A stretch of 63,305 nt of DNA, filler included, from Lophium mytilinum (taxonomy: Eukaryota), in NCBI GenBank assembly GCA_010093605.1. It is 15 parts of 8 records of this genome, joined end to end, with 100 filler letters (N's around TTAATTAATTAA, not from the genome) between each part and the next. Parts side by side here need not be neighbours in the genome. Positions count along the whole stretch, not along the records: positions 8,703 to 32,774 come from MU004201.1; 14 more parts are not named here. The stretch is one strand, 5' to 3'. The translations under genes were made by a program, and so were the position numbers. Positions within the stretch are counted from its first letter, which is position 1; each line of letters starts with the position of its first letter. Of this stretch, positions 14,648 to 39,338 are shown in pieces. The notes beneath the pieces were generated by a model. That model was given only the letters and a program-made list of their open reading frames with translations, was not told where the DNA came from and did not search any database.

Positions 14648-14661
14648 ATTGTAGGGGCTGG

Positions 14662-14676
14662 AGGGTTAGGGTTAGG
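14662..14676 (+). repeat. Short internal telomere-like tract (AGGGTTAGGGTTAGG)
   Basis: Seen directly, in the same orientation as the terminal tract. RIP-mutated equivalent at ~35016-35030. Confidence 0.8.
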
Positions 14677-14759
14677 TGGGGAGAAGCGAGTTTAACATAG
14701 AGAAAATCAACCTTTAAGAATTGCGTGCAGTACAACCTTGCACCGCCGCATTTAACTAC

Positions 14760-15450
14760 CACGACGTAAAATAGAGTATGCATGCGAAGAATAATGCTTA
14801 GAACGCAATGCAATAGCGTTCTATTAACTTTAATTTAATTTACAAGCCGTAGTAGTGGCTTAAGGTGGGTATAGAGAGGCCGCAGAGTGCGCAGGCACAG
14901 GATAGAAATTACTTAAAGGGTTTAGCGTAAGAACAGCCTCGCGCTTAAGAATTAGTGCAACTACTACTGCATGCAACTACTATAACATAGCATAGAAGAA
15001 ATATACAAAGGATTATATATAATATGTAATGCAATAGCAATCTATTAACTTAGAATTAATATGCAGGCTGTAGTAGTAGTGGCAGTTACGTACGGAGGTA
15101 AGATCCCGAATAATGGAAGTTACTTAAAGAGTTTAGCGTAATACTAGCCTTGCACTTAATAAAGACCTTAACTAGCGCTGCATGGAACTACTATAATATA
15201 AGGTTAAAGATATTTACAAGGAAAATTACTTATTATATAATGCGACAGCATTCTAGCAATTTAGAAATATTTTACAGGCTGTAGTTATAGCTCCAGGTGG
15301 GTGCAGAGGGTAAGGAAAGAGGGCGGCCAGCAGCGTAGAGTATAGCCCTATAATTAAGCAGCCTTCTACCGCTGCATATAATAACTCCTAGATATTAAGA
15401 TACTATAACGGAGCTATAATACTATATATAGTATGCGCAATTAAATTTAA
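14760..15450. repeat. Degenerate ~210-220-bp tandem repeat, about 3 copies
   Basis: AATGCAATAGCGTTCTA-like at ~14807, ~15028 and ~15239. TTACTTAAAGxGTTTAGCGTAA at ~14909 and ~15120. GCATGxAACTACTATAA at ~14969 and ~15180. Confidence 0.75.
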
Positions 15451-16266
15451 AGTATTATAGAAAAGGCGAAGTCCTAGTAGTAGGTGCCTATAGAGGGTAA
15501 TAGATATAATAGAAAGGGTTTCGCGTTGTAATAGCCTCACCTTAGCACGGGTTGCTGCTAGATAGTATTCTTATGTAATAGAAATTTCAGCCGCATTAAA
15601 TAAAATATATAAAGTAAAGGGCAGAATACAGTTTATACAACGTTTATAGATAAAGCAATTAATAGGGCTACCGCAGGAAGCCTTTCTGCTAGGGCCCTTC
15701 CCCAGCGACCTTGACCAAGTGGCCGTATCCGTAAGGGGTGTTAAAACGGGTTAGGCGGGGTAAGCTCCACAACAAGAATGTTAATAAATCCTTGTTTTCA
15801 ACCAATTACACTCCCTAACCGCTTTCCGCTCCTTAGCTCTATATTCTAAACTATTATCCCCCTTACTACTACACCTAGTAGTTAGTATAGAACGCCCCTA
15901 AAAGTACTAGAATAAAGAAGAGTAAAAAGCAGCTAAATTACATTTAATAGTGGATTTGAACCGACGCAAGAGAGATAAAAAGAAGAGGGCTGTAGACTAA
16001 ACAGCTGCAGTAGGAGAGGCTAGCGAGCCTACTTCTACTTCTATCCTAGATCCGTTTCTAATTATCTTTAAAAACCCTAGAGGTCTTTCTAGTATAAATA
16101 TTAGGGCCCCTTATCCCACCCGCCCTGCGCCCACGCCCTTTTAATAACTAATTGCACCTTAGGAGCCTTTAGAGGAAACTATTGCATAACTTACAATTAG
16201 TATATCTTTTGTAATCTCCTAGTATTTACAGTTAGGTTCTAATAAACTTAAGTAGAACCCGTCTTA

Positions 16267-19200
16267 ATAGAAGAATTATTACCTTCTACCTCTACTTAAT
16301 CTACGCAATATACTCCTCCGCAGCGGTCTACTTATAGTAGTACCCGTTCTACTATTCCTCCTCTATCTACCTAACCTACGCAACCTACGCAATATACTCC
16401 TCCACAGCGGTCTACCTATAGTAGTATCCGTTCTACTGCTCCTCCTCTATCTACTAAACCCACCTAATATTCTACTCTAGGGCGGGCTACTTATAGCAGT
16501 ACTTGTTTGCTCGCTCCTCTAACCTCTCAACCTACTTAACTAATATAACTTTCTTATACCCAGCAGTCTACTAGCAGTAGTACATACTCTAGTAAGTTAA
16601 GAGCGGCCTAATATATACCTGAAATTTAAAGTAATATAGAATTAACGGAAGCTGCAGAGCAAGATTAGAGTAATAGTAGTAAGCATACTGTTATATAGAC
16701 TATTAAGAGAGCAGTAGTTAAAGGAGAAAAAGAAGCGGCTAAAGAAAGCGAAGCAAATAAAGAAGTAGCCCAAGCAGATAAAGAAGTAGAAGAGGCAGTA
16801 TTAGAGTTACTGTTACCTGCATCTTCCGCGTTATCTCCTTATACACCTGCGTTACCACCGCCTCTAGATGCTAGAGAGGTGTTGCCCTCTCTATTACCAC
16901 CTTACAGCGTAGGGACACCTTAGTAAGCCGCAAATAATAATAATAGAGCTCCGGGCTAGGTTCTACCCGCTATACGCTATCTCTATAAAGCGTTTCTTAA
17001 ACCTACAGCTACACTATATATATATACAGGCGTATATACTATCCTCGCCCTCTAGAATACCCTATAGACGGCTATAACACTACGCGCGAGTTCACGCGCT
17101 TAACAAACTACAGCAGCTCCTACTCCTGCACAACTAGAACTAATAACACAACGCTAAATACTAGCCCTTATTACTATATTACTGCTCTACGTACTTGCGC
17201 AAATAACTAACAAAGAGATTACAGCGGAATCGTTCTTAGCGCAACAAAATAAGGCCGTAGAAGTGCTCTCTAGAATGGACGCTGCGGAATAAATAGATAA
17301 GAAGAAAATGCTGGCTAATATAAGTTAGTTCATGCGACTAGCGCACAATAACAGTTGGGTTTAGATAGAGTGGTACGCTGCCTTATTATCTCTCCGCCCA
17401 ACGCCAGTAACTAAGGTTGTAGAAGAGGAATTTACCCAATTTAAGAACAAGGTAGAAGCAGGTGCAGATATAGATAAGGTATTAGATAACGGAGTTAAAG
17501 AGGGTAGAGAAGGTATATATACGCAAGGACAGCAAGACACTATAGATAAATTACCGGGTTTACTTAACGAAGTTACGCTAGAGAATTAAGGCAGTAGGGC
17601 AGATAATACAGCCTTAAATAGTAAAGGTAACAGCGAGATTATAGATAAAGTTGCAGATAAGATAGACCCTAATAGGTAAGTATTATAAGCTCTATAGTTT
17701 ATATAAAGCTAATATACGTAGGCATAATAATCTATTAGTAAATACTCTACATGCAGTAAGTATAATCTAATTAGCGTTAGAAGTCTAGTGTACTTGCTGT
17801 ATATCTTAACTCTTTCTATTTAGATAATATAGTAGCTAATATTATAATATAGCAAGTAACTATATAATAGTTTCTTAGAGTAGATCTCTTAGCTAAGTTA
17901 CTAGCTTTCTCCTAGCTTAGAACCTTTCCTCCTAATAAGAGCCTATTACAGCCAATGCAGCCTTCTATCTAATAAGCCAACTAGAGCTATTATAGAGAGA
18001 GGATAATCCCAATAACTTTAACAATGTCCCATGGAAATTAATGTTAAGCGGAGAAACTAGTAACATAGAAACTCTAAGGCTTAGTTTTATAAGGTCTAAA
18101 GCTAGCTTTATAGTAAATAAAGAGATTAAAATCCAGCAAGTGTATAACATTAATAGCGTTATTATTGGTATCTCTACTTTAGCGGCCTATAATTTATACT
18201 TCTTACTATCTCTATAACCGTCCTTTCTCTAAAGTATTACTTAAAACCAACGCATTATAATACGCGGCTATAAGCTCCATATAATAAAGCAGCTTTATAT
18301 AGGGCACGGGTGTAAGCATTAATTTAAAACTCATGTGTTTTTCCCCTAGATGCTGACACCGAATAAGCAGAAGGGCGACACTTTGCATCTACTAGATACA
18401 ATGCAAGCAGCTTGGCTTAACGATATTATCTTACCCGCAGTAAAGCATACTCTAACACCCGACAAGTGGCAGCATATACCACACAGTTTTAATATTATAC
18501 GGGGTAAAGCAAGCGTTAAGAAAGAAAAATATATAATATTATCTAGAGACTCTTATATTAATACTAAGTATATAATTCCATAGTGTTGACTCTAAGAATT
18601 CTAGAACTAAGTTCTTTATAACGTAGAAAACTTTGCAGAAATAGATACTATACCCGAAGATTTATTTAAAGGAGTATTCCTAGTAGTCTCGGGTTACAAT
18701 CTAAAAATGGCATATAAGTCCTTAAGTATAATTTAAAGCAGGGATTAGCTACTATATACTTTAACCACTACTTTTAATAAAAACCTAATTAATATGCTAG
18801 ATAAGGGGATATAGGTTAACTATAGATACGAAGATGTCCCAACTACTAATTAGCTAGATACCGGGGTTACCCTTCTACGCAAAACTAGCTGCAACAACCA
18901 CTGGGCCACTTACTTCCACGACAGCGGAAAAGAAAAGATTTATACAATATTGTACCCCTACCATCTTACCCAGGGCGCGTCATCTCTAACAGTAGAGCTC
19001 TAAGCAGGCAACTATAGCCGTATTAGTGGTATGGCATACAATAAAATCTATAATAGTAATAAGATTATGCTTAAGTTACCCGTTAAGGATATTACGCCCT
19101 TTTATAATACTTAACTAGAAGCTCTTGCGTTCTTAACTAAAATAATTAAGCGGTGGTTTAAAGCGGCAGGTAGCTCCAGAGGATTATTAAAAAGAAAACA

Positions 19201-20750
19201 GCTTTAGGATAGTCTTGCTGCTATTCTCTAACGCCACTATACTGTACTCTAGAGAGACAGACACTCATCCTATAGGGTTTAAACTGAGTTCCAAGTACTT
19301 CTTACTATACTTAAGCAACTTAAAGAAAGCGCAAGTCCCAAATTTACTATAAAGGATGGGCCGGATAATAGTAGCGAGCCTTATTGCCCCTACTAGGTTC
19401 TTTCTATAGAAGAAGTTAATGCCTTTACTATTGCAAACCTTAATCGCTAGGTATTCCTTTTCCAGGTACTGTCTCTTTAGGTTACCCCCGGGCGTAATGC
19501 TAGGCATATAGCAACACTAGATAAACAGCTAGTAAATAGTTATTTAGCATCTCTTTGTATCCGCCTTGCGCAAATTACTACTAGATATAGTAATCCTACT
19601 TAATTATCCGTACTATAGAAAAAAAAGTGGATAAATTAAAAAGACCCCCGGAATCCTGTAACCTTATATAGCCTTAGGTTATTAGACTCCCTTAAGAAGT
19701 ATAGCATGGCTTGGCTAAAGTTAGAGTACTTAGATTGGACAACAACGCCCCCACAACTTAGCCCTTAAGGCGTTGATCGACTGCAAGCCAGCCTTAGGAA
19801 TTAATTCCAAGCTACATTTACTAAAGCTTGGATCTAGGTATCTCTCACTAGGGAGGATATAGAGATGCAGTATCTACAGTATAGTATTGCAGCATGGTAC
19901 ACGCTAGCTATTTAACGCGAAAATAGGACTAAAGTGTAAAAAGATTAGCGATTAGCACCGCCATAGATGGGTAAGGCAGCTGCGCTTATTATTAAGGCAT
20001 ACTATACCGATATATATAAGCTTCTAAGCAGACGGTACGCAGGAGAAGATAGAAATACTAAGACGCAACAGGAGAGTAAAGAACTACGCGACTAATTTCT
20101 TAGAAGTATTCTAAATAGATCTACAGTTGCGCTTTATCCCAACATGCTTACAAAGCTATATAGAAAGTTGGGACTTATAGTAAGCTACGCCTACGTGCAG
20201 AACATAGCTAGAAATGGTAATACAAATTATCTAAGGCACTTAACTAGACGCTGGATTAATTAAGTCTAGCCGCTATTTAACATCACGGATCTAGCTGCAG
20301 AAACTTAAAAATGGAACAACAGTCCCTTCCGCATGAAATTGCGAAGATTAAATGCAATAATTAGAAACAAAGCGTCACCAAAAACGGCAGAACAATTCCT
20401 TAACAATCTACGAGCGAGAGCCGCCTTATCACTCTAGGTTCTTCTAAGATACAACAACGACAAAATTTTAACCACGTGTTAAGCTAAATAAAATAACTCT
20501 AAAGATACACAAGATAATATTAGGGGAAGAGATGTAATTATAAATATACAGTAGATCTATATGCAACTACTAAATAGCTACTACTATAAGGTAGCCTAAC
20601 TAAGCCAATATATTAAAGAACAGGCTTAAGGGGGGGCAGTTAACCTTAGCATAGACGTAGTTGCAAAGGAAGTATAGAACATAACCTAGGGAAGCCCAGG
20701 AAAGTTAAAGATAATAATAATAGAGGATAACATTATAGGCCCTAGAGGTT
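16267..20750 (+). pseudogene. Large hypothetical protein (~1400 aa): P/S/T-repeat and acidic N-terminus, globular-looking C-terminal part
   Basis: Near-continuous frame broken by TAA/TAG at Gln/Trp/Arg-type positions, including ORF 18350-18583. Candidate GT-AG introns at ~16592-16630, ~17676-17721 and ~17756-17823. De-RIPed motifs HVFFP, QHIPHSF, WVDYGYED, YNKIYNSNK, SYGVRTEF. Ends are approximate. Confidence 0.65.
16300..16590 (+). repeat. ~84-bp coding tandem repeat (TQYTPPQRSTYSSTRSTxPPLST), 3-4 copies
   Basis: CTACGCAATATACTCCTCCxCAGCGGTCTAC at ~16301 and ~16385, with degenerate copies after. Confidence 0.8.
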
Positions 20751-21799
20751 AAGTTAATCTAAAACGTGTCTAGCTTAGGTTTAAGCACTGTACACTAAAT
20801 AGCCCAAGGGCTTATTTAGGCAGGATTCCAATAATCAAAGAATTCCGGAATTATTTAGCGATATAGAAGGAGCAAGAGGGGGATATAAGTAGTTAGTTAT
20901 TAGACGAAGAGTATAAGTATAAAGAGAGTTCAGGTAACTACAGCTTAGAAATAGAGGACTTGGAGAACTCGGGGCAAGAGGCCTAGGAGAATAAGGCTTA
21001 AGTAGAAGAGTTCTAAGGAGCATATAGATTTAAGCGTTAATAGGTGGACTAGCAGGGGCGGCGTTACAAAGAAGAATTATTAACAAGAAAGGTAGTAAAG
21101 TATTTAGTATAAGATATAAAGGGCGTTAGTAGAAAGGCTTCTAGCCAGGCTCTTATATAGTACGCAAATGCTTATCTAGTAGGTGCGTAGCGGTAATATA
21201 TATAAGAAGAGAGGCAATAATAGGCGTGCTTAATACAAGTAGCAAAGGGCCCTAGCAGGAAGGCTTTCTAGCAAGACCCTTATACTATAGGCAAATAGTT
21301 ATATAACAACGCGCAATGTTCTATTAACCTATCTTAGCGCAGTGCTGTGTTACTAGAACTAGGTAATACGTAGCGTAGTATTATAGATTAACCGCAAACG
21401 TTTATATATTAGCGAAATTAAGCAAAACGCTAATATATTTATACCCGCGATATTTTAACCTTATATAATATACAGCCATTACATTAACCTTAAGAGTTAA
21501 CTTAAGCAGTTTACTATTAAAGGCTTGGCGTCTTAGCGGCCGGCGGCTATCGGCCCGGCCGCCCACAAACTTATCCGCCGCCTAGCAGCTTTAACTTCCT
21601 TACTTCTATACTAACCTCTCCTTCTATACTACCGCACCCCCATTACTTCCACTTATCTAGCTACCTGCGGAACGGTTACGCGCTAGACCCTTACTTGCTA
21701 GACAATAGTTAGCAGCTTCCTAGCTACGTTGGAGCCGCAATTGGCTTATTTTAGGCGTCTTTTTGGCTAGCGGTTAAGCCTTTTAGTAAGTTTGCTGTC

Positions 21800-24700
21800 C
21801 AGCAGGTAAAATTAAGTTACGTTATAGCTAATTCTGCTAACAGGTTTATTCCATCGCAATTTCTCTAAGAGTGGAGTAAGGTGAGCGTATTATAAGAATT
21901 ATTGCAGGAAGGCTTCCTACCAGGGCCCTTTACTAGTCTTAGTAGATTAGTCTGCCTTAATTTTAAAGATGCGGCGGCAGGAAATGTCGAGAAAATAATA
22001 ATACTAAAAATACCCGGCATAGTGTAAAGGGTCTTAGCAGGAAGCCTTCCTACTAGGGCCCTTTGCCTGCCTCCTTTCTTCTATTATTTAAGATAGGCTG
22101 ACACATTAACAGGCTGGCTATAAATACCTTAAGCGATGGGGACCCTAGTAAAGCAGCAGTAAAGGTTGCATCCCTGCGCATATTACCTGCAACCGACCTA
22201 GTAGACAGCTATAAGAAATAATCTACTTCTTCTAAAGTGCTAGAAGATCTAAATTCTACCTCCCTACCGGTCACTAAATTGAGGGTCGATGCCTATATCA
22301 ATTTAAAGCGCGATTAGCCGGCCACTACAATAGATCCGGAGACGCTTGCATTAGCAAATAGCGAAGTAGTTTATCCAGATAGTAATAACTATAGTAACAA
22401 CTCTAATGTCCCTAAGAACTCTAATAAAGAGCAGGAGAAGCTTTAAGCGCTGGTTACTAGCACTAGAAAAGATAAAGAGTTAGAGAAGTTATAGGCCTTA
22501 GTAAACACGCTGTATGCTAGTAGAATAAAGTTGGCTAAGCTTTATAGTTAAACAAAAGCAGAACTCGAAGCAATTCTAGCTAAGCCTAATTTCTAAGCAA
22601 TTTAAAATAAGTACAAGAATGGGTATTTAGACCTAAAGCGCGCCGTGCATAGTTAGAATTAAGGGGCCAGTTTTGCCACTATCCTAAACGCTTTTAAGAC
22701 TAGCAAGTTGCATAATCTGCAGCGATATACTACTCCTTAGCCTAAAATAGATAACTATAAACCCGTGGATTAGGTAGCTTAATTTATTAGTCAATGCTTC
22801 AATTACTACCGGAAGCGGTTTAGTGGGTTTTTACACAACCGCGCTAATGTTACTAATAACAAAGCGCTTAGAATCTTCTTCAAATTAAAGAAAAATATAG
22901 AGTTTAAGAGTGGCCCGTCTTAAGCCAGCAGAACCGCCTGTACTAAGAACTAAATTAAGATACAGGACGTTCTTTAAAAAATAAAGCTCAGTCTAGCACC
23001 GGCACCTAAGACCCCGGCCAAAACTATTGCTTGTAGTAGTAAGGATGTTAACAGAAAGCCTTCCCGTTAAGGCTCTTCTAGGCCTCCCCGTTGGCAGTCG
23101 CCCTCTCGTTTTACTAAGGAGGAACTCGCGGCTATTAATATAGAGGTTAACGCAGACGACCCTATCTAGGGGTTATTTAAAGAGGAAATTGCTGCAAACC
23201 TAGTTAATAAGGAGAAAGGCAACGTTAATGTTACTAGCGCTAAGTACATCACCGGCACCATAAAATAGGAGCTTAAGTTGGCAATTATGCATGCTAAGCG
23301 CACCGGAGCGATAATTAACCGGAACTCGTTAAAGTTTCAATACAACGCATATCGGGTGATTAGATAGATGGCAGGAGATTTTATATATGCTATTAAATAG
23401 CACCTAAACATGCGCGCTGCAGATCTAAATAAGGACGAGTACGCTGATTAGGACGGTATTAAATATGCCTAAGACATAGAGGCTAATATAAGGGCTACCG
23501 CTATTAATGCGAAGGATATTATCCCCTTTACTACACTAACCGCGGCAGATCTTATAATGCAGAGTACACTCCGCCTTCTAATAACTAACAAAGCCTATTA
23601 GCTAGATAACCTAAAAGAAGCAATAAAGGCTCTACGCATTTATAACTATTGGGAACCCCGCCTTATTATAATAAATGGCAATATTTACTTAAGGTGGTGG
23701 CAGATTACTGGGGCTTACTATATATACTATATTATATAGAAAGGCTTTCTTAGTAGGGCTTTAATTGCAGATAAGGTTGGCATTAGGAAGACATTTTTAA
23801 TGGCTACCCTTATTAGATATATAAGCAATTTCTCTTTAAAGGGTGTTAATAGGAAGCCTTCCTACTACCCCCCTAATAGTTTCTCTTGGCATCTACTAAT
23901 TCAATTATAGCTTATTACTAAGCGCCAGCGCAAAGTTGCGGATAAGAAAGACCCCGGGCCGGCGAAGCCCTTCCTTTTTCTTATGCCTCCCGTTTTAGTA
24001 CACTAAATAGCGAATAAACTTATAAAGTTTAGTTCTAAACTTAAGCTCTACATCTATTTATTAAAGGGCCAAGTCGCTTTCTATAGCGCCACGTTTCTAC
24101 ACGACACCTTAACTAGGGACCATCCCTTATTTAACACTAAAAACAAGGCTAATGCTAAGAGCATCGTGATTGCTAGCTATTAGGTAATGGCCGGTCGGCA
24201 CGGTCCCCAGCCCGCATTAAAGTGGTATAGCAACAACAATCTTACTAAGCTAAAGAATTGGGTTAAATATCGCCCAAGCTCTACCTGGCCCGGTCTCTTA
24301 AGTGGCTGTTTTAACGTCCAATTTATAGACAAGTGCCAGCTTATTAAAAGCGACTAAGTAAACCTCCACCTAACCGCGTCGTGGCTTTACTTAGACTTTA
24401 CCGTGCTCTATAGTAGGACCCCGCTATATATAGGCATTACTAATATGCCTACTTATATATCTTTTATAGAACCGAGAGACAAGTATCTATAATTCCGCAC
24501 GTACCGCTTAAAACCCGGTAAAGCCAAGTTTATTCCGGGTACCAATAATCTATTTAAGCTTCCCGACAACTATTTAGGTGTAATTTTCTAGTATACACGC
24601 AAGGCTTTTAAAAATTTTATTCTGCCTTTATTTAACCCGTAAGTCATTACATAAAGGGCCCCAGCAGGAAGGCTTCCAGCTAGGGCCCTTATCTCTCCTC

Positions 24701-27493
24701 TTATTTGCTTTAATTTTCTAACATTTCTCTAGAATTATACAGGGGCTTTATTTGCGCTTAATTTTTAGCAAGTGCATAATTGCTCGCTTATACCCTTCTA
24801 CATGCCCGAACAATTCCACTAATTCTACCACCCGAATTAGAGGATCACTTCCGCGGTTAGTTACGCGAGTAATCGAGCTACAGCCTATAAAACTAGGCCA
24901 TATTATCTATGCCAATAAATTACTAGCCTACCTTAAGTTATTAATAGTTCCTACTAAGAACCGCGTAGGCTAGCGCACCTATGCATTTAACGCATACTCC
25001 GTGCGTGCTCTCAACCTTATAAGCACTGCGCTATTTTTAGTCTACTCTAAGCGCGCCATAATGGCATATCCGTAAGAGGAGGTCTTAAATTTAGAGGGCA
25101 ACAAGATTAAGGACGGCCCGAAAATCATCCCTCTTAAGAATAATGGCGGTTACTAGTTAAAGAAAATAGACGTTTTACGAGGCATAATAAAGCAAATTGC
25201 CCGGAATAAGGACGTCTAAACTAACCCTAATTAGAAAGACTTTAAAGCAAAGTCCGCATTCTTTCGTTACGTTGTTACTCTTTTTATCCGCGATGCCCCT
25301 AAAGTGGCTGCACTACTATACTATTTGGCCGACGACGTTATTAAGCGTATAGAGAAGGTTATTATCTAGACTAACTACCTGGATAAGTAAATAATTCTCG
25401 CTAAGATTATTAACTATTATAAAATGGATGCTTGTATATTAGCCTCCGATCTCTCTACTACTAACCGGGACAACCTTATCTTAGTATTTAACGACCCCGA
25501 CTCTAAAGTAAAGATCCTTATCACTAGTTACTAGGCTAATAGAGCTGGGCTTAATCTGCAGTCTACTTACTACAACGTATATCTTTTTAACCCTGCAGGC
25601 TCTATTTAGATTGAGGAGCAGGCGATAGCGCGTTTATATAGGATTGGCCAGAAGTTTACTATTATAGTAACCGCGTTCTTTATCTAGGACACATTTAATG
25701 CCTTTACTCTCTTGCGCCAGGTATAGATAGCGCTTCCCGGTCTTACTGCTGCGTTAAATACTAACCAGATTAAGGTAGAGGGGACCTCTAAGAAAAAGCT
25801 AACCCCAGATGGCCAGTATGCGTGGGTAACCTATAATAATAAGAGCATTGCACCCCGCCTTATTACAGGCGAAATGGATATTTTAAATGTGCCGGTGGGA
25901 TTACACGTTAAGCGCTTTAACTCCCTATAAGACATTCTTGTATTTCTAACAACCCTCACGCGAGGCAATATAACTTTTTAGTCTAGTAGGTTTAGTAATA
26001 AGTTCTAAGAAGAACAAGCGTACAAATTCACTAAATCAGAATTAGAAGAAGAGGAGGAGAATAGTGCAAGTGGAGCGCCCAAGAAACCGCGTGTTAATAA
26101 GCCAGGTTTAAGGCTTAAGCGTTGTCCTGCGAGTAGTAAGTTCGCCCTTATAGGTTCTAGCGGGAAGGCTTCCTGCTAGGGCCCTACTTGCCTCTTTATA
26201 CTTTGCTAATCTGTATTTTATAGTAAAAGCCACCCCAAAGCCAAAGCTAAAGACGCTAGAGCAATAAAACGGCAAAGCTTTAAAGTAGAAGCGCAAAGCT
26301 GGTGCTGCACCAGCGGCTGCCGTTAAGAAGTGCAAGCCTAACCCTAAGTCTACTATTACGGTTAAAGACTTAGATTCTGCTAAATCTAATATGCCCACCC
26401 CCATAAAGAGCGCTACTAGAAATGCTCGTGCCCCTTTTATCCGTTAATATGGGCCGGAGCGTAACCCTTCGCGTTAAGTACCCGCTGTTTTTAGTAATAT
26501 AAACGGCGACAACCCTTTTAGTAGGCTAAATAGTAACAACTCTGAAGGCGAAGAGTATAAGGATAATACTTCGTTCCTTGCGAAGTATACAGGTAAGAAT
26601 TCATCCTAGGGCCTTTTTAGAAAGCCTTCCTGCTAGGGCCCTTTAGCATCGCCTATTGTATTGCTTAAGTGCTAACTATTATAGCAGCTCCTACTTCTGC
26701 CCGTCGACCCACTTTAACCCCACCTTCTAGCCCTCTTAGCACCTTTAATGGACGCCTTATCAGGACCCCTTCTATAGACCCCGTCCCGTTGCCTAATACG
26801 TAGAAGAAGAGGCAGCGCGGAATATCTACTATCTCCTCGCAGGATTCTATAGATAATTTTATTTTTTATTTGCCACTAAAAGCCAACGTTAATATAGATA
26901 ATAAGCAGAACAAGGAGAATGTTAAAACCCCCAACGTTAATATAGAGAACGTCCCGTCTAAGACTAATAAGTAAAACGGGGGGTATCTTAATAATTACCC
27001 GGATTTTACTACTACGCCATCTGAAGTTGCCTTTAAGCGTAACAGCAACTACGGTAGTAACTTGGACGACCCGCCGGAATTTATAGAAGGGGCCTCGCAG
27101 CCAACCCTAAAGACTGTATCCTCTAGCAATGCTAATAAGGGTCGGAAGCGCTAAGGCGCAAAAAAGAAGCCCACTATAAAGAAGAATAAAGCGGCTAAGA
27201 AAGACCCTATGTCTAAATCCCTTATATATCGTCCGTACAAGTACATAACAGAGAAAGAGATTGCCGAGTAGCGCCCTCAGCGCGAAAGGAAGGCTACTAA
27301 GAAGAAAGCTGCCGCGCAGAAGTCTATAAACTCTACTGGACTAAAAATAGACCTACGCAGGCGGAAGAATAATCCCGATATTAGCTAACCGCCCGCGGCA
27401 TTAGGTGTAGATACTAACCCTAATAGTAAAGAGGATAGTAGTGAATTAGAGGGGACTAGTATAGCGCTGGAGAAGTCTAATAGTAAGGTATAA
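21800..27493 (+). pseudogene. SNF2-family (SF2) ATPase/helicase, multi-intron, RIP-mutated
   Basis: LRWWQ (~23689), ALIADKVGIRKT=ADEVGIGKT (motif I, ~23758), FLMPP (Ia), IDKCQ=DECQ (24325-24339), SRTP=SGTP (~24412), KVIIW (~25355), AGLNLQ (~25543), QAIARLYRIGQ (~25619). Removing intron 24639-24732 (94 nt) joins the two helicase-lobe frames. K/S/E-rich low-complexity C-terminus. Start is uncertain. Confidence 0.88.
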
Positions 27494-27889
27494 CTAGTAG
27501 GGTCTTTATAGGAAGGCTTCCTGTAGGGGCCCTTGCCCTACTTTTTAGATTTAGTTTAGCATCTCTTAATGTCTTTTTCTTTTTCTTTCTAACGGTTCTA
27601 ATTAGGACCACTTTCCTTGCTATTAGTTTGCACCTACTTACTTAGTGCTGCTAACTTTTTACTATCCTAATTTCTTACTTGCGTTCCATCCCCCACCCCC
27701 TAATAGTTAGTACTGCTCCGCAGTAGTAGTACACTTTATACCCTTAAAATCTCCCAGTTTATATTTAGCCTCTAGATAGCGGCTTGCTTAACTATAGAAT
27801 ATAGCGTAATATTTACTACTATAACTATGCCTTGCGTATCTTATGCGTAATATAATATTTATTTTATTTATCTATGTTATATGGGGCGG

Positions 27890-28800
27890 TCTTATCCGCC
27901 GTAGTTTACGTAGTCGTGGAGGGCAATTGCATTCCAATACCGCTCCGTCGTATCTATACTATTGGCATGTGCTCCCTATCTTTTTTACGGTAAAGAATCT
28001 GCTATTATATACTCTGTAATTCAACCCTCTTCGCTAACATTAGTTATACGGCTGGGCCAAGTCCTCTCTATAGACCCCATCTATTAACACGCTGTATACA
28101 ACTTTATTCTGCCTATAGTTCCCTAAAGCGTGTATTATTATATAATGCCTAAACTAACCGGAAGGAGAGTTATTTGCACGTGTTATTGTTAAGTCTTTAG
28201 CGTGCTGGGCGGCGGAAGGCAATTTAGGTGTCGCAGTTGTACTTTCTAGTTTATCGGCGATGTATTCGGACCTGCTTATTATTAGCAAGGACAGTAATCC
28301 TTAAGGGGTTATAGTCTTACCGTTTATCGCTTTTAATATAACTTTCCTCCTCCTTACAGTTATAAATAGTCTCTATATTATAAATAGAACTACTCTTTCA
28401 TTCTAGTATTTTCCTTCGCTTCTATTCTTATAGCCGTCTTAACGAGCGCTTTAGCCGTGTAAGCTTCCTCCTTGCAACCAAATCTGGGGTGGCATTTGCA
28501 ACCTCGCGCCTAGACGGGGTATTAGGCGTAGTAAGGAGAGAAGCCAACCGCTCTATTAGAATATACGTATTGGGCAGACGTGGATATATCTACCCCTGCC
28601 GAACGTTATTCTCGGCGTTTAGAGTTGCTGTGCTGCTGCGCGTTAACCTTAGTGTGCCGGGCTGTATTTTATATACTTTAGCCTAGTTTAGGGTTGCAGC
28701 CGTCTCTATGTTAGGTTGGGCCGCTTCTTATCTCGCAAATATCCGCCGGAACGCTCTAGGAAGGACGTATATAGTATACCGATTAAGACTTGCATATAGT
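27890..28800 (-). pseudogene. Possible degenerate hypothetical gene
   Basis: Minus-strand frame reads mostly open across ~28320-27893 with a candidate intron at ~28114-28159. No family recognised. Confidence 0.3.
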
Positions 28801-29264
28801 ATTGTGCGTGGGCTGCTGCTATACTATAAGGGGTAGGTAGTAGTTGGAAAAAGGTTTAATGCGCTAGTTTCTGTTAATCTTAGTATATTACGTGCTAACC
28901 ACTCGTATTATACCCACACTTATAATTAACCTTTAGAGGTTAACTCTATATACTATACGCAAATAGCAACTCTAAGAGTTTTATTTCGTCACTATACTGT
29001 ATATATATTTTACCTTAGGCGGGACTAGTAGGTCCCTATAACGTACAGTTTACGTAACTATACCCTGCGTCGCTTCAGCGCCCGCCCGATTTACTCTTCC
29101 TCTCTTCCCTTACTCCTTTAGCTTGTTCCTCTCTACACTATAGCTGCAGGCAAACTAACAGCTAGAACTAGCACGGGAGAGACTCTTAATTGCATTTAAA
29201 GCACTTTAGAGAGATAGTTTAACAGTGCGTAAAGTTTTAAAGCCGGCAGGCCGTAGAAATACCT

Positions 29265-29953
29265 ATGCAACCAACTTAGAAGAGCAGCACGCTAAGAACA
29301 GCACCGCCACGACAGGCACACTAATGGGCTCGGGTACTATTACTTAGGACCCTCTCCTTAACCCCAATACACCTAGTAATGCCGCGGATCTTGCCGCATA
29401 AAACGCTAGAGAGGAGTTCTTATTATTTATTCCTAAAATAACTCCTAAGCTAGCTAACATGGACTAACCCCACACGACTAAACCGCTTACCGCGGAGGAT
29501 ACTGCCGACCCTACCTGCATCCGTGCCTAGAGAGAAGCACTTCTTGCAACTATCTAGAATTAAAACGGAGGTTCCCTCTTTAGTAATAGCCTAGGCACGC
29601 CTACTAATACTACTCTTAATATGCAGCCTACTACAATTAAGTCTTAAACTCTCCATAACTATGCTAACCCCCTATCCCAAGCCTCTAGAGATAGCGCCCT
29701 ACCTTCTAAGTCCAATATTAACATTAAGCCTAAACTAGCCGACGAAGTCAACGTAAAGATCGAGCCTGGTATTAAGATTAAGCCCGGCCTTACAAGCAGC
29801 CCGGATACTACGAGTTTTTCGAGGACAATTCTAAGGACAAGGAGCTCCTGCGCTTGCGGATCAATGTGGAAGAGAAGAAGGCGAGGGCTGCATAAACAAG
29901 GTTTAAGGCTATAGCTAGAGAGCGGAAGCAGCAGGGCCTAATCCACTCCTAAA
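29265..29953 (+). pseudogene. Degenerate hypothetical low-complexity protein gene (KxEP-like repeats)
   Basis: GC-richer coding-like sequence with IKPK..VKIEPGIKIKPG and a charged ELLRLRINVEEKKARAA stretch. Stops and an apparent frameshift. Confidence 0.35.
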
Positions 29954-29984
29954 TCTAAACCTCGGACGGGAGTAGCAGCGCCCT

Positions 29985-30135
29985 AACCTATCCCTATTTC
30001 TACGCGCTCGTTAGCAAACACCCAACTCTTCGTCCAGCGCTGCTAGGCCCTTGCTATCCCCCAACCCATCTTCTCCTTTAATAGCAACGCGTCCCTGCCC
30101 TCCTAGAACTATACCCTAGCCCTCCACGCCGCCTA
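29985..30135 (+). pseudogene. Partial paralogous copy of the first dsRBD coding segment
   Basis: Aligns by eye without gaps to ~31074-31220 (GTTAGCAAACACCCAACTCTTCGTCCAGCGCTGC vs GTTAGCGAATACCCAGCTCTTTATCCAGCGCTGC). Confidence 0.8.
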
Positions 30136-30360
30136 CGCGGAAATTGTCTAATAGGCTTCACTCTTTTACTTTACCTTACTCTTATTTCCTTCTTTAATAG
30201 CTTTATCTCTGCTCTTCTACTATTAGTCTTATCTTCTTCCACTATAGCGGAGCCTCTAGACTTAACCCCTAGTAACAGTACTGGTTCACCCTTTACTACT
30301 ATAGCGAAACCTAAAGATTTATCTTCCATTACTACTACTACCGCGTTGCCAACTCGCGAG

Positions 30361-30468
30361 CCCCAAAATTGCAGATATTGCAGGAAGAAAGCCACTCTAA
30401 GGTGTAGTTACTGCGCCAGCGTTATCTACTACAATGCGGATTGTTAAAAGGCTAACTAGAAATTATCT
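30361..30468 (+). pseudogene. MYND-type zinc finger fragment
   Basis: PQNCRYCRKKATLRCSYCASVIYYNADC*KAN*K fits CxxC...CxxC..xYCxxxCQxxxW after de-RIP. The final H-x3-C pair is not evident. Confidence 0.75.
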
Positions 30469-30890
30469 AATGCGCCGCCTTCTTGCATAAAGGTTGTTGC
30501 ACCGTAATAAGACTCCTATGCTTTAGCTTAAATTTACTAATAGACGGCGAAGAGCGTAAAGTTTAGCGGATTATCTAAGGGGTAGAAATTAAAACGGGCT
30601 CCAGCTCTATTATATAACTATAAGCTGCAATACACTTTACCTCTTATAAACTCAGCCCGCTACGCATAAATATAGAGTCTCTCCTGCCTAAGCGCCGAAG
30701 AATAACTTCTAGTAGAGCAGCTGTAGCTACCCTAGCTCGTGTAGATTAAACTAGCACCCTACCTTAGCCTTCTTAGGCTAGCCTTTAACCTTATATATAC
30801 ACCAGCGTAGGCAGTAATAATTATTCTTATCCTTCCTTTATACTAAGCTTAATTACCACGCCGCTTCCTAGCTTTAAGAAGAAAAGAAAA

Positions 30891-32052
30891 ATAGAGGTCG
30901 CAGCTCCCCTTAGCAGTTAGAACTCCACCCCGCCGTTAATAGATTAGACACGTGGAGGCTCTATTCCAGGTGCCCTAAGTATACTATAAAACCTTCTTAG
31001 CATTAATAAGTTTAAGAAGCAGCATAAAGCCGCCGTTGCCGCCGCTAGAGCCTAAGCCTAATCTACTCCCTAACCTATCCCTATCTCTATACGCTTGTTA
31101 GCGAATACCCAGCTCTTTATCCAGCGCTGCCAGGCCCCCGCCATCCCCCAACCTATCTTCTTATTTAACGGCGACGCCTCCCTACCCTTCTGGAACTGCA
31201 CTCTAACCCTCTACGCTGCTAGCTCCCCCTACTTTCTTACTACTACTAGCCCCTTCACCTCTAAGAAAGAAGCTAAAGAAGCCGCCTCTACTCTTGGCCT
31301 TAGCCTCCTCTCCTCTCTTAAAGCCTCGGGCATAGTCTCTACCCCTAGTAAAACTAAAAAACGCACCCCAACCTTAACTTCTACTACTACTACCCCTAAG
31401 AAACCCTAGGAAAACTTTACTAGCATTCTTATAGAATTCTACTAAGCCTCTAAAATCTCCGTCCCGACCTTTACTAAGTTTAAAGCCGGCACCTGCTTCT
31501 CCGCCGAGCTATTGCTGGCCTCGCACCGCCCGGAGAACGCCCCCTTCGGCGGCCGCGCTGTGCTCCACCCGTTAAAGAAAGCGGCTCGTGCGGCTGCGGT
31601 AAGGAAGGCAGTGCTCTAGCTGCGCGTAGGAACAGCTGCCCGCTATATACTAGCCCGCGTCCGTAAAGAAGTAGCGGAAGACGGCAGGGGGTTCTAAGGA
31701 CGCCGCGGTGCAGCTGCCGGGCAGTATAGCGGCGCGGGTGCTGGCGCTAGCAAGCGAGCTAGGGCTACCGCAGCCGGAGTATTAGTAGGCGGCGCTAAGT
31801 GCGCTAGCGCCGGGGCTGTCTATAGTAAGTAGTTTGTTCCCGGGGAGTAGAGTAGGCGGGGAGGATAGGGTAGTAGTAGCGGCAAGGCATATAGTTAGAA
31901 AGAAGGCGGCAAGAAAGAAGTATGCGCGGTTAATAGTAATAGAGTTAGAAGGAGTATTAGAGAGGAGGAAGGGGGTGTTAGGAAAGGTATTAGAGAAGGG
32001 GAAGAGGGAGGTAGAGATAAGGGAGGGGGATAAGAACTATTATTCTTGTTAG
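30891..32052 (+). pseudogene. Protein with three double-stranded RNA-binding domains (dsRBD)
   Basis: Three units ending in the dsRBD KKxA helix: FTSKKEAKEAA (~31255), HPLKKAARAAA (~31566), VRKKAARKKYA (~31894). Preceded by LxxxCQ/EFxQ..P-type first helices. Includes ORFs 31095-31409 and 31834-32052. RIP stops and a probable frameshift. Confidence 0.78.
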
Positions 32053-32340
32053 GAGTATAGAGAGACATATAATAGGAACTTATTTATACTTACTTAATTT
32101 AGGTTATAGTAGGGGAAGTATATTAGAAGTATAGTAAGTAGGAAGTATAATTACTTCCGCAGTAATATAAGGGTTACTGCAGGAAGGCTTCCTGCAAAGG
32201 CCCTATAAAAAATATTAGTATAATATATATATATAAAAAAGATATATAAATTTATAATAAAAAGGATCCCTATAGAAAGCCTTCTAGTAAGAACACTATA
32301 ATATACATTAAAATAGATATAAACTTAATAGAATTTAAAG

Positions 32341-32660
32341 AAGTGTTTTATACTATATACTAGTATATAGATATATATTACGCCTAATAAGACTAATAGA
32401 AATATTTCTATACTATATACTAATGTGTAAGTATAGAGTACGCCTAATAAAGCCTTAATAAATATTTCTATAGTATATACTAAGATAAACGTATATAGTA
32501 CGCCTAATAAAATTTTACTAAATGTTTCTATACTATACGCTTAATAGTAGGTATACAGTACGCATCTAGGGATTTTAGTAGATGCTTCTATACTGTACGC
32601 TTACTAGTAGGTATACAGTACGCGTAACAAAATTTTACTCGATGTTTCTATACTGTACTG
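32341..32660. repeat. Subterminal tandem array, exact 60-bp period, ~5.3 copies
   Basis: Consecutive 60-nt lines from 32341 align without gaps, each with TTTCTATACTRTAYRC...GTATAxAGTACGC. Confidence 0.92.
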
Positions 32661-32679
32661 TTGGCCGCCCGCTAGCACG

Positions 32680-32774
32680 GGGTTAGGGTTAGGGTTAGGG
32701 TTAGGGTTAGGGTTAGGGTTAGGGTTAGGGTTAGGGTTAGGGTTAGGGTTAGGGTTAGGGTTAGGGTTAGGGTT
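32680..32774 (+). repeat. Telomere tract (TTAGGG)15
   Basis: Perfect TTAGGG repeats running to the contig end. Confidence 0.98.
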
Positions 32775-32874
32775 NNNNNNNNNNNNNNNNNNNNNNNNNN
32801 NNNNNNNNNNNNNNNNNNTTAATTAATTAANNNNNNNNNNNNNNNNNNNNNNNNNNNNNNNNNNNNNNNNNNNN

Positions 32875-35044
32875 GTAATAGTAACTCTAATACTGCCTCT
32901 TCTACTTCTTTATCTACTTAGGCTACTTCTTTATTTACTTTACTTTCTTTAGCCGCTTCTTCTTCTTCTTTAACTGCTACTCCCTTAATAGTCTATATAA
33001 TAGCATGCTTACTACTATTACTCTAATCTTACTCTGCAGCTTCCGTTAATTCTATATTGCTTTGAATTTTAGGTATATATTAGGCCGCTCTTAACTTACT
33101 AGAGCGTATACTACTGCTAGTAGACTACTAGGTATAAGAAAGTTATATTAGTTAAGTAGGTTAAGAGGTTAGAGGAGCGAGAGAATAAGTACTACTACGA
33201 GTAGCCCGCCCTAGAGTAGAATATTAGGTAGGTTTAGTAGATAGAGGAGGAGCGGTAGAATAGATACTACTATAGATAGACTACTATAGAGGAGTATATT
33301 ACGTAGGTTATATAAATTAGGTAGATAGAGAAGGAATAGTAGAACGGGTACTACTATAAGTAGACTGCTGCGGAGGAGTATATTACGTAGATTAAGTAGA
33401 GGTAGAAGGTACTAATTCTTCTATTAAGACGGGTTCTACTTAAGTTTATTAGAACCTAACTGTAAATACTAGAAGATTGTAAAAGATATACTAATTATAA
33501 GTTATATAATAGTTTTCTCTAAAGGCTTCTAAGGTGCAATTAGTTGTTAAAAGGGTATAGGCGCAGGGCGGGTGGAATAAGGGGCCCTAATATTTATACT
33601 AGAAAGACCTCTAGGGTTTTTAAAGATAATTAGAAATAGATCTAGGATAGAAGTAGAAGTAGGCTTATTAGCCTCTCCTACTACAGCTATTTAGTCTACA
33701 GCCCTCTTCTTTTCTTCTCTCTTGTATTAGTTTGAATCTACTATTAAACATAATTTAGCTGCTTTTTACTCTTTTTTATTCTAGTACTTTTAGGGGCGTC
33801 CCATGCTAACTACTAGGTGTAGTAGTAAGAGGGATAATAGTTTAGAATATAGAGCTAAGGAGCGGAAAGTAGTTAGGGAGTGTAATTAGTTAAAAATAAG
33901 GATTTATTAATATTCTTATTATAGGGCTTACCCCGCCTAATCTATTTTAACACCCCTTATGGATACGGCCACTCGGTTAAGGTCGCTAGGGAAGGGCCCT
34001 AGTAGGAAGGCTTCCTGTAGTAGCCCTATTAATTGCTTTATCTATAAATATTATATAAACTATATCCTACTCTTTACTTTATATATTTTATTTAATGCGG
34101 CTAAAATTTCTATTATATAAGAATACTATCTAGCAGTAACCTATGCTAAGGCGAGGCTATTATAACGCAAAACCCTTTCTATTATATCTATTACCCTCTA
34201 TAGGCACCTACTACTAGAACTTCACCTTTTCTATAATGCTTTAAATTTAATTACATATACTGTATATAGTATTATAGCTCTATTATAGTATCTTAATATC
34301 TAGAAGTTATTATATGCAGCGGTAGAAAGGCTGCTTAATTATAGGGCTATACTCTATACTGCTAGCTGCCCTCTTTCCTTACCCTCTATACCTACCTAGA
34401 GCTATAACTATAGCCTGTAAAATATTTCTAAATTGCTAGAATGCTGTTATATTATATAATAAGTAATTTTTCTTATAAATATCTTTAACCTTATATTATA
34501 GTAGTTCTATGCAGCGCTAGTTAAGGTCTTTATTAAGTGTAAGGCTAGTATTACGCTAAACTCTTTAAGTAACTTCTATTATTCGGGATCTTACCTCTGC
34601 ATATAACTGCTACTACTACTACAGCCTATATATTAATTTTAAGTTAATAGATTACTATCGCATTATGTATTATATATAATTCTTTATATATTTCTTCTAT
34701 ACTATATTATAGTAGTTGCATGCAGTAGTAGTTATACTAATTCTTAAGCACGAGGCTGTTCTTACGCTAAACCCTTTAAGTAATTTCTATTCTATACCTG
34801 CGCACCCTGCGGCCTCTCTATACCTACCTTAAGCTACTACTACGGCTTATAAATTAAATTAAAGTTAATAGAATGCTATTATATTACGTTCTAAGTATTA
34901 TTCTTCGCATGCATACTCTATTTTACGTTGTGGTAGTTAAATGCGGCGGTGCAAGGTTATACTGCACGCAATTCTTAAAGGTTAATTTTCTCTATATTAA
35001 ACTCGCTTCTCCCTACCTAACTCTAACTCTCTAGCCTCTATAAT
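32875..35044 (-). repeat. Inverted copy of 14648-16816 (left end of the 18-kb element)
   Basis: Reverse complement is collinear, and the differences I inspected are almost all C>T/G>A. Confidence 0.95.
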
Positions 35045-39238: not shown

Positions 39239-39338
39239 NNNNNNNNNNNNNNNNNNNNNNNNNNNNNNNNNNNNNNNNNNNNTTAATTAATTAANNNNNN
39301 NNNNNNNNNNNNNNNNNNNNNNNNNNNNNNNNNNNNNN

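Follow-up and report, generated by a model that had tools for sequence, protein, structure and literature searches.

Systems which invite comparison with the introns described here are foldback MITEs inserted in introns and the algal introners, which are derived from DNA transposons. The introner-like elements of the Capnodiales are, in the available sections of the reports, nearly identical over their full length and present in hundreds of unrelated host genes (PMC3609843, PMC4457414). Each symmetrical sister (stw)intron of the Hypoxylaceae forms an imperfect inverted repeat over its entire length, with arms of 45-55 nt around a 10-nt palindrome; the sisters are similar throughout, and the available part of that report suspects the symmetry to be the driver of their propagation (PMC8469720).

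The window analysed here is the whole stretch of 63,305 nt of Lophium mytilinum DNA (GCA_010093605.1, filler letters included). It holds two copies of a subtelomeric element with an SNF2-type helicase pseudogene, the introns of which carry a short palindrome. The palindrome resembles a MITE in having two inverted arms that nearly abut, in its many copies and in occurring in either orientation, but at 35 bp it is far smaller, no target-site duplication or partner transposase was found, and it clusters strongly in the introns of a single gene.

To the extent that the available sections describe them, the introner-like elements share with these introns a length of about twice the usual, a stable predicted hairpin, several copies per gene and no transposon hallmarks (PMC3609843, PMC4457414); here, in contrast, the 35-nt core alone is common, it also lies outside introns and it is known from just one repeat element. 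A strict introner-like family is not supported. The earlier note had offered an introner family as one reading; this failed the test of full-length similarity and is further weakened by the copies outside introns, by the split between G and C centres and by the hint that the position of 23821-23910 is old in the gene family. The Hypoxylaceae introns (~93 nt) are likewise canonical and internally symmetrical, are integrated seamlessly and lack a target-site duplication in the part of the report covered (PMC8469720), whereas at our locus the symmetry is a near-perfect block of 35-41 nt placed off-centre, the flanks are unrelated and so are the sequences. The element itself is like the subtelomeric helicase elements (yeast Y', fungal telomere-linked RecQ helicase genes) in that a multicopy helicase unit adjoins the telomere and short telomere tracts mark the joints between stacked units, and unlike them, as far as the sections cited go, in that the helicase is SNF2-type, not RecQ or DEAD (PMC8381367, bioRxiv 10.1101/2024.02.27.582403). 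The term SNF2 is absent from the searched parts of the fungal telomere review (PMC8381367).

The element and its helicase pseudogene

The left end of copy 1 consists of ATTGTAGGGGCTGGA and two telomere units, and this terminus was found attached to two unrelated sequences. The SNF2 region is covered by more than 1000 variant contigs from two DNA runs of one sample. The element which bears the SNF2 gene is multicopy, 18 kb long and ends in a TTAGGG telomere. The RIP indices of copy 1 are 1.77 and 0.67, and of the 512 differences of copy 2 from copy 1, G>A or C>T changes make up 474. Both copies carry the SNF2 gene as a pseudogene, and the element is now inactivated by RIP. No ordinary host gene is seen in the window.

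Upstream of the SNF2 gene lies a neighbouring reading frame of 3.2 kb (17900-21061, 1054 codons) for which no Pfam family and, in the protein search, no homologue was found. In those frames of the element which were covered by Pfam, no transposase family was detected. A MYND-like cysteine pattern noticed by eye at about 30360-30480 was rejected, a Pfam match being absent. An Rfam scan of 14600-32700 with E up to 1 had zero matches.

Pfam detects Helicase_C directly in the SNF2 pseudogene (1.5e-6). The N-lobe has no Pfam match in the RIP-damaged translation, yet it aligns to homologues with SNF2-rel_dom; these homologues contain both SNF2-rel_dom and Helicase_C, and one of them (P0024) matches solved chains of SNF2/Rad54, RAD5, Fft3 and DDM1. 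With an N-lobe as well as a Helicase_C domain the predicted product belongs to the SNF2 family of ATPases. A protein search for 'longer' relatives of exon 5 found zero. The spliced reading has 56 stops in 1688 codons, every one TAA or TAG, against 176 stops in 1839 codons in the unspliced reading. Since all in-frame stops are of the type that RIP makes, the gene was open before RIP.

Introns of the pseudogene

The features are collected in Table 1. Five introns of 88-94 nt with the palindrome 14-19 nt from the donor had been described before (i1, i3, i4, i5 and i6), and all five are confirmed; the palindrome starts 14, 19, 16, 15 and 15 nt past the donor, respectively. The RIP-mutated donor claimed for i3 is present as ATAAGC in both copies in the window. 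The earlier note added two candidates which stand in part. The one at ~22017-22112 has the intron signals, but its donor moves to 22022 (GTGTAA, which keeps the frame of the ATG) or to 22024 (GTAAAG), and the palindrome begins just 4-6 nt past it. The one at 27488-27605 also has donor, branch and acceptor, but a clear coding frame after it is absent and the unspliced frame stops after two codons; it may be a 3'-UTR intron or may never be spliced. The seven segments noted for the gene left out an eighth palindrome, around which 23039-23143 is the sole in-frame canonical splice solution; this candidate is uncertain because the homologues do not cover the region.

Table 1. Features of the window, as assigned from the sequence
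Feature	Position	Strand	Details
Subtelomeric multicopy element, copy 1	14648-32667	+	RIP-decayed
Palindrome copy outside gene	15664-15698		centre C, E 4e-11
Degenerate palindrome copy	21117-21154		between upstream frame and SNF2, E 6e-6
Palindrome copy	21246-21280		between upstream frame and SNF2, centre G, E 6e-11
SNF2-type helicase pseudogene	21969-27487	+	ATG at 21969
SNF2 exons	21969-22021, 22113-23820, 23911-24638, 24733-26135, 26224-26592, 26685-27487	+	
Intron i1	21881-21968 (88 nt)	+	GTGAGC...AAAG, just 5' of ATG 21969; palindrome 21895-21929, centre G
Intron i2	22022-22112 (91 nt; 89 nt if donor 22024)	+	CTGAC, CAG; palindrome 22028-22062, centre C
Candidate intron	23039-23143 (105 nt)	+	GTAAGG...ATATAG; palindrome 23041-23079, centre C
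Intron i3	23821-23910 (90 nt, in frame)	+	ATAAGC, CTAAT, TAG; palindrome 23840-23874, centre C, right arm imperfect
Intron i4	24639-24732 (94 nt)	+	GTAAGT, CTAAC, TAG; palindrome 24655-24689, centre G
Intron i5	26136-26223 (88 nt)	+	GTAAGT, CTAAT, TAG; palindrome 26151-26185, centre G
Intron i6	26593-26684 (92 nt)	+	GTAAGA, CTAAC, TAG; palindrome 26608-26642, centre C
Candidate intron i7	27488-27605 (118 nt)	+	GTATAA, CTAAC, TTAG; palindrome 27499-27533, centre G
Palindrome copy	32170-32204		centre G, ~460 nt from telomere
Degenerate second palindrome copy near telomere	32261-32297		
Telomere repeat (GGGTTA)n	32668-32775	+	end of contig 1
Linker N/TTAATTAATTAA	32776-32875		directly after telomere repeat
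Element copy 2	32876-41388	-	second contig, inverted, RIP heavier than copy 1
Palindrome counterparts in copy 2	33992, 35104, 35921, 36718, 37731, 37864, 38513, 38647		

CTAAC-type branch sites precede a YAG acceptor (AAAG in i1) by 9-15 nt, and these signals are confined to the coding strand. A strict pattern of donor, branch and acceptor is passed by four of the seven segments, i5 and i6 among them, on the + strand only, and by 25 of 2000 random centres; donors that are weak or of RIP type mark the remaining three (ATAAGC in i3, GTGTAA in i2 and GTATAA in i7). The assignment of i1 is by splice signals only.

Removal of i3-i6 restores the reading frame: exon frames 0, 0, 1, 2, 1 agree with the intron lengths 90, 94, 88 and 92, with a shift from frame 1 to 2 across i5 and from 2 to 1 across i6. 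As judged by alignment, the homologues skip both i3 and i4. At i4 the alignments end at 24621-24639 and pick up again in the next frame at 24728-24740, leaving 0-8 residues unaligned, which bears out the claim that splicing here restores the helicase frame; compared with the homologues, i4 is exactly one additional segment and therefore is not former exon sequence. At i3 four homologues (P0024, P0028, P0030 and P0036) are gapped exactly at the intron (~22-30 residues). Among 42 homologous gene models 13 start at most 12 residues just past the i3 position and 11 span it, and a gap is present at i3 in four of the five spanning models with an inspected alignment. This gives a hint that the i3 position is old in the gene family and older than the palindrome. 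One possible RNA run with the same species label gave no matches on the stretch. No intron-less copies were seen among the short DNA contigs, a weak test as these are only ~160-340 nt long. By splice signals, frame and homologues the five confirmed segments are genuine short U2-type spliceosomal introns of the SNF2-type pseudogene.

The palindrome and what the introns share

The 35-nt palindrome, AGGGCCCTAGCAGGAAG-S-CTTCCTGCTAGGGCCCT, is built of two complementary 17-nt arms around a single centre base and often extends to 41 bp. Beyond 17-20 nt from the centre the symmetry is lost, and of the 12 positions at a distance of 21-32 nt only 1-4 still pair. With up to two mismatches the core 13-mer has 30 strand-matches in the window, compared to a mean of 2.5 in shuffled sequences, none of which (0/100) reaches 30. 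A profile scan found 13 solid copies in element copy 1 together with their counterparts in copy 2, and none better than E = 1 elsewhere in the window. The centre base is G in six and C in five of the 11 copies with an intact centre, and G in four and C in three of the seven introns first noted. The outer ends read GTAAGG on either strand, and the donors GTAAAG of i2 and GTAAGG of the 23039 candidate overlap such an end or are supplied by it. The copies at 15664, 21895 and 32170 have in common a variant left arm on the + strand. The predicted hairpin persists in copies which RIP has spared, with z-scores of -2.9 for i2, -3.0 for i4 and -2.0 for i5; the hairpin is weaker in two of the seven segments and lost in the two most mutated ones. 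A degenerate 25-nt pattern of the palindrome gave one metagenome match, zero viral and two prokaryote matches in the three collections; the metagenome match was read as chance, as the core only is present within unrelated GC-rich sequence. In full-text literature, searches with the core and arm strings gave only unrelated human or mouse matches. A half-palindrome at 23737-23759, in coding sequence beside the Walker A motif, has E = 0.23 and is possibly due to chance.

The earlier statement that only the palindrome is shared between the introns holds. In a self-BLAST of the element, the similarity between palindrome sites never exceeded 48 nt. When palindrome and splice signals were removed, shuffled sequences were as alike as the remaining parts in 34 of 500 cases downstream and 338 of 500 upstream, whereas for the palindrome itself 0 of 500 shuffles were as alike as the real introns. 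The intron flanks are no more alike than shuffles, and no global or flank similarity was found beyond palindrome and splice signals. Since the introns are unlike outside the palindrome, and the palindrome is also present at five sites which are not introns, the repeated unit would be the palindrome and not the intron. With 41 nt subtracted the intron length becomes 47-53 nt in six of seven introns. Introns of filamentous ascomycetes are usually about 50-60 nt; the remainder fits this size, and the 88-94-nt introns are about twice as long. No direct repeat which could be a target-site duplication was seen beside the palindromes; the flanking TAA...TTA is inverted and the context is AT-rich.

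The SNF2 gene has eight palindromes, and every detectable intron has one copy. The five copies outside the gene fit an intron frame in 0/5 cases on either strand. The profile scan found no palindromes in the 3.2-kb upstream frame and none in the 4.6 kb between 27534 and 32167. Eight palindromes in ~420 nt of intron, as compared to five in ~8 kb of the element's remaining DNA that looks non-coding, is a ~30-fold excess, and this intron excess needs intron-linked insertion or selection.

Origin of the palindrome-bearing introns

The analysis shows the introns, the palindrome family, the absence of other similarity and the copies outside introns; spread at the DNA level, neutrality in splicing and the reason for the intron excess are what we infer. 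The explanation which we favour, tentatively and with somewhat less than even confidence, is that each spliceosomal intron is an ordinary fungal intron of ~47-53 nt plus one self-contained 35-bp palindrome, placed after the 5' splice site and before the branch point. As a tiny foldback module (MITE-like or by template switch) the palindrome would have multiplied at the DNA level, with orientation ignored, and would survive where its hairpin is harmless. In the pre-mRNA it would fold into a stem of 15-17 bp which keeps the effective distance from donor to branch normal, and we propose that splicing therefore tolerates it. Several observations are at variance with this explanation. Random insertion with purifying selection does not account for the ~30-fold intron excess; a target-site duplication is not visible and a transposase is not recognised; the donors supplied by the palindrome suit an intron-creating element better; the + strand bias of the variant left arm is not predicted; and both gene copies in the window are pseudogenes for which the one possible RNA run gave no transcripts.

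The intron excess, with one copy per detectable intron, would be understood if a palindrome intron or its core had been multiplied by a route linked to splicing or transcription and had created or colonised all introns of the gene, the flanks having later diverged or been recruited locally. Long introns with stable hairpins are traits of the introner-like elements of fungi in the sections cited (PMC3609843), a target-site duplication is likewise absent in the Hypoxylaceae sister introns as partly described (PMC8469720), and the donors of i2 and the 23039 candidate come from a palindrome end. Such an origin is nevertheless unlikely, if to be taken seriously: similarity is absent outside palindrome and splice signals, palindromes also lie outside intron frames in either strand, a strand-specific RNA route would not be expected to give four G and three C centres, i4 is exactly one additional segment and the i3 position looks old. 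That the palindrome is conserved between sites far above any flanking intron sequence might instead reflect a selected cis element, either a DNA site bound by a dimeric protein, from the element or the host, or an RNA hairpin acting in splicing control or in small-RNA silencing of the subtelomeric repeat. An exon can hardly encode a perfect 35-bp palindrome, introns would be the only room for it inside a 5-kb reading frame, and copies are found near both ends of the element and upstream of the gene. The lack of copies in the upstream frame and in 27534-32167 gives no regular spacing, however, and it is left unexplained why the SNF2 gene has eight and the neighbouring stretches zero; an Rfam match is absent, and for Dicer a stem of 15-17 bp is a short substrate. 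We regard selection of this kind as rather improbable. That both copies in the window are pseudogenes would agree with the segments not being introns at all, simply insertions of a small repeat that broke the gene, which is hard to believe in view of GTAAGT-type donors, CTAAC-type branches and YAG (AAAG in i1) on the coding strand only, the exact frame bookkeeping and the in-frame stops, every one of which is of the type that RIP makes, so that the gene was open before it.

The most far-reaching reading, which we consider quite doubtful, is that in the palindrome we have an introner's minimal active core, copied from intron to intron or seeding introns by a transcription- or splicing-linked route within a selfish subtelomeric helicase element. 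The setting is new, an SNF2-type and not a RecQ-type helicase element being stacked at chromosome ends. It is not settled how fungi gain new spliceosomal introns and how these spread, or what part is played by the hairpin which all known introner-like elements and symmetrical sister introns have in common. In the present gene the hairpin is a discrete conserved module in every intron while the remainder of the introns is unrelated. If this module is the part that is copied or selected, the hairpin would be separated from the splice signals as the propagating part, and the question could be tested with a 35-bp sequence. The arrangement is unusual and may reveal how introns spread jointly with repeated hairpin modules.

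Introns and reading frame of the SNF2 gene

The few-stop frame of the SNF2 gene, a helicase pseudogene, shifts 0, 0, 1, 2, 1 over five blocks along the + strand, which is exactly what is expected if segments of 90, 94, 88 and 92 nt are removed. Splicing yields 1688 codons, 56 of them stops; every one of these is TAA or TAG, such as repeat-induced point mutation (RIP) produces from CAA, CAG and TGG. The same span unspliced has 176 stops in 1839 codons. The fourth block matches Helicase_C (1.5e-6), and an exhaustive profile search turned up 1046 relatives, the closest of them sharing 36% identity. SNF2-rel_dom was present in 8 of 9 relatives scanned, as was Helicase_C, and one homologue matches solved SNF2/Rad54-family chains. 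Both copies of the gene in the window are pseudogenes.

The seven segments given in the earlier note as introns (five) or further candidates (two) are here named i1 to i7 (see table). At i4 the alignments of six homologous SNF2 proteins (P0002, P0003, P0004, P0013, P0023 and P0097) end at 24621-24639 and continue in the next frame from 24728-24740, leaving 0-8 residues unaligned, which bears out the claim that splicing of this segment restores the helicase frame. The in-frame i3 corresponds to a gap of about 22-30 residues in P0024, P0028, P0030 and P0036, directly after the GxGKT motif. A CTRAY-type branch site is found 9-15 nt upstream of the acceptor in all seven segments. Four of the seven match the strict pattern, a GT[AG][ATC]G[TCA] donor with branch site and YAG, on the + strand; the - strand gave no match, and among 2000 random centres 25 matched. 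The donors of the three failing segments are weak or changed by RIP. The donor of i3, said earlier to be RIP-mutated, is indeed ATAAGC in copy 1 and copy 2 alike, which is consistent with a TpG-to-TpA change. Judged from these signals and alignments, the intron calls are well supported for i3-i6 and plausible for i1, i2 and i7, and it is very improbable that the segments are not introns.

An eighth palindrome of the gene, absent from the earlier list, lies in the non-conserved N-terminal part, where 23039-23143 is the sole in-frame canonical solution for a candidate intron around it. It should be noted that, among 42 homologous gene models, 13 start no more than 12 residues past the i3 boundary (two at 23914) and lack motif I. 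The boundary is spanned by 11 of the 42, and four of the five spanning models with printed alignments have a gap there. Together the starts and the gaps hint that the i3 position may be a family-wide exon boundary older than the palindrome; the starts would reflect either a conserved boundary which gene callers fail to bridge or a split form of the family.

Positions of features along the window
Feature	Position	Detail
Frame with SAT-like and helicase C-lobe motifs	12002-14650 (+)	883 codons, 13 stops
Left terminus of element, copy 1	14640-14700
Left terminus of element, copy 2	35000-35070 (-)
Element copy 1	14648-32667 (+)	GC 0.35-0.53
Element copy 2	32876-41388 (-)	inverted
Copy 2 match to copy 1	39238-35045	20558-24751, 87.8%
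Copy 2 match to copy 1	35044-32876	14648-16815, 91%
Copy 2 match to copy 1	41388-39339	17115-19164, 88%
Palindrome outside gene	15661	profile scan
84-nt tandem repeats, near left part of element	16292-16459; 33149-33391	both copies
Frame upstream of SNF2 gene	17900-21061 (+)	1054 codons, 3.2 kb
Palindromes between upstream frame and gene	21117; 21244	profile scan
SNF2 gene	21969-27487 (+)	8 palindromes including those in i1 and i7, profile scan
i1	21881-21968
i2	22022-22112
i3	23821-23910
i4	24639-24732
i5	26136-26223
i6	26593-26684
i7	27488-27605
Eighth palindrome	23041-23079
Half palindrome	23737-23759	E 0.23
152-nt repeat	29981-30132; 31068-31219	81%
Cys-rich stretch	30350-30480 (+)
Palindromes near telomere	32167; 32261	profile scan
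60-nt tandem repeats	32335-32660	immediately before telomere
Telomere, end of first contig	32668-32775	~18 GGGTTA units
Artificial linker	32776-32875	N/TTAATTAATTAA/N

A RIP-decayed element at the chromosome end

Copy 1 of the repeat is the 18 kb preceding the telomere. Since the telomere terminates the first contig, the SNF2 gene ends about 5 kb from the chromosome end. Copy 2, on the second contig beyond the artificial linker, is more mutated. G>A and C>T make up 474 of the 512 differences that separate the copies, and the dinucleotide indices of the element (TpA/ApT 1.7-1.8; (CpA+TpG)/(ApC+GpT) 0.67-0.72) are, by the thresholds used for reading such values, those of RIP. More than 1000 short contigs from two DNA runs of one sample match the SNF2 region with 80-100% likeness, and their differences are chiefly C>T and G>A; the element is thus a family with many copies. 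It has a defined left terminus, ATTGTAGGGGCTGGA followed by two telomere units. This terminus abuts a truncated helicase-like frame in copy 1, and in copy 2 it abuts SNF2 exon 5, broken off at the position that corresponds to 24751. The same terminus on two different broken neighbours indicates that units stack onto broken ends, much like the Y' elements of yeast.

The frame broken by copy 1 lies in very heavily RIP-mutated DNA of 24% GC and is truncated in motif V by the terminus. Its Helicase_C match (E 2e-4) is below the cut-off and a search for a solved relative found none; the frame is possibly an older telomere-linked helicase gene. The frame upstream of SNF2 has neither introns nor palindromes, matches no Pfam family and gave no homologue in a word-index search. 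Tandem repeats of 60 and 84 nt are also present, and a 152-nt repeat lies near the Cys-rich stretch, which looks MYND-like by eye (CxxC...CxxC...C) and has no Pfam match.

The palindrome and what the introns share

The palindrome has the consensus AGGGCCCTAGCAGGAAG-S-CTTCCTGCTAGGGCCCT, often lengthened by TAA(A)/(T)TTA. Its 13-nt core, with at most two mismatches, has 30 strand-matches in the window versus 2.5 expected, a number reached in none of 100 shuffles. A profile scan found 13 solid palindromes in copy 1, with counterparts in copy 2, and no match better than E = 1 in the rest of the window; ordinary host genes are absent from the window. The palindromes of i1, i4, i5 and i7 are centred on G, those of i2, i3 and i6 on C; the 11 copies with intact centre comprise 6 with G and 5 with C. 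Where RIP has spared the palindromes they are predicted to form RNA stems, with z-scores of -2.9 (i2), -3.0 (i4) and -2.0 (i5); i1 and i7 have weaker stems, and i3 and i6 have lost theirs. The palindromes at 15664, 21895 and 32170 carry on the + strand a common variant of the left arm, with YTAYYGCAGG in place of CCCTAGCAGG, which makes them asymmetric, and are possibly a subfamily. A half palindrome (core and one arm) lies in coding sequence just upstream of Walker A; its differences are RIP-type with one indel, and it may be due to chance or be a clue to the origin of the palindrome.

A scan of 14600-32700 matched no Rfam family at E up to 1, and the palindrome string had no match in the open literature searched. 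In metagenome, viral and prokaryote collections the pattern hit bacterial records only; the match inspected was the core alone in unrelated sequence.

In a self-comparison of the element, similarity between palindrome sites never exceeds 48 nt. Complementarity ends 17-20 nt from the centre, and at distances 21-32 only 1-4 of 12 positions pair. With palindrome and splice signals taken out, the observed score of the introns was reached by 34 of 500 shuffles downstream and 338 of 500 upstream, and for the palindrome itself by none of 500. Outside the palindrome and splice signals the introns are thus no more alike than shuffles, in line with the earlier note, which had only the palindrome shared, and what is repeated is the palindrome rather than the intron.

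Origin of the palindrome-bearing introns

We tentatively favour, at somewhat less than even confidence, a reading in which the palindrome is a module duplicated at the DNA level. It would have been placed between donor and branch point, where alone such an intron could accommodate it, and a hairpin stem there would keep the effective spacing unchanged. Subtracting 41 nt from each intron leaves 47-53 nt (77 nt for i7), and 47-53 nt is the usual intron size in filamentous ascomycetes. An ordinary intron plus the module would account for the "uniform ~90-nt cassette" look reported earlier, and a full-length introner is not needed.

An introner-like origin is rather unlikely. Fungal introner-like elements are defined by full-length near-identity over many host genes (PMC3609843; PMC4457414). 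The SNF2-gene introns share with these the double length, the hairpin and the occurrence of several copies per gene but lack the near-identity, and the proposal that they form an introner family, taken strictly, is not supported. The symmetrical sister introns of Hypoxylaceae are about 93 nt long and free of target-site duplications, and their symmetry is suspected of driving their propagation (PMC8469720); there symmetry and similarity extend over the whole intron, which is not so here. An intron-linked route is nevertheless favoured by i2 and the 23039 candidate, whose donors (GTAAAG, GTAAGG) overlap, or are formed by, the palindrome's outer end, by the left arm variant common to three palindromes on the + strand, and by the search for a target-site duplication and a transposase, which found neither. 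The five palindromes outside the gene show no intron frame on either strand, weak signals possibly having been erased by RIP.

That the palindrome is a selected cis element is a minority possibility, to which we give a little less credence than to an introner-like origin. 

The favoured reading does not account for the density of palindromes in introns: about 420 nt of intron contain eight, the remaining element DNA that appears non-coding, about 8 kb, contains five, and the 3.2-kb upstream frame contains none. Random insertion followed by purifying selection is insufficient for such a 30-fold excess. Either insertion would be linked to transcription or splicing, which is close to the mechanism of introners, or hairpins would be selected in the introns.
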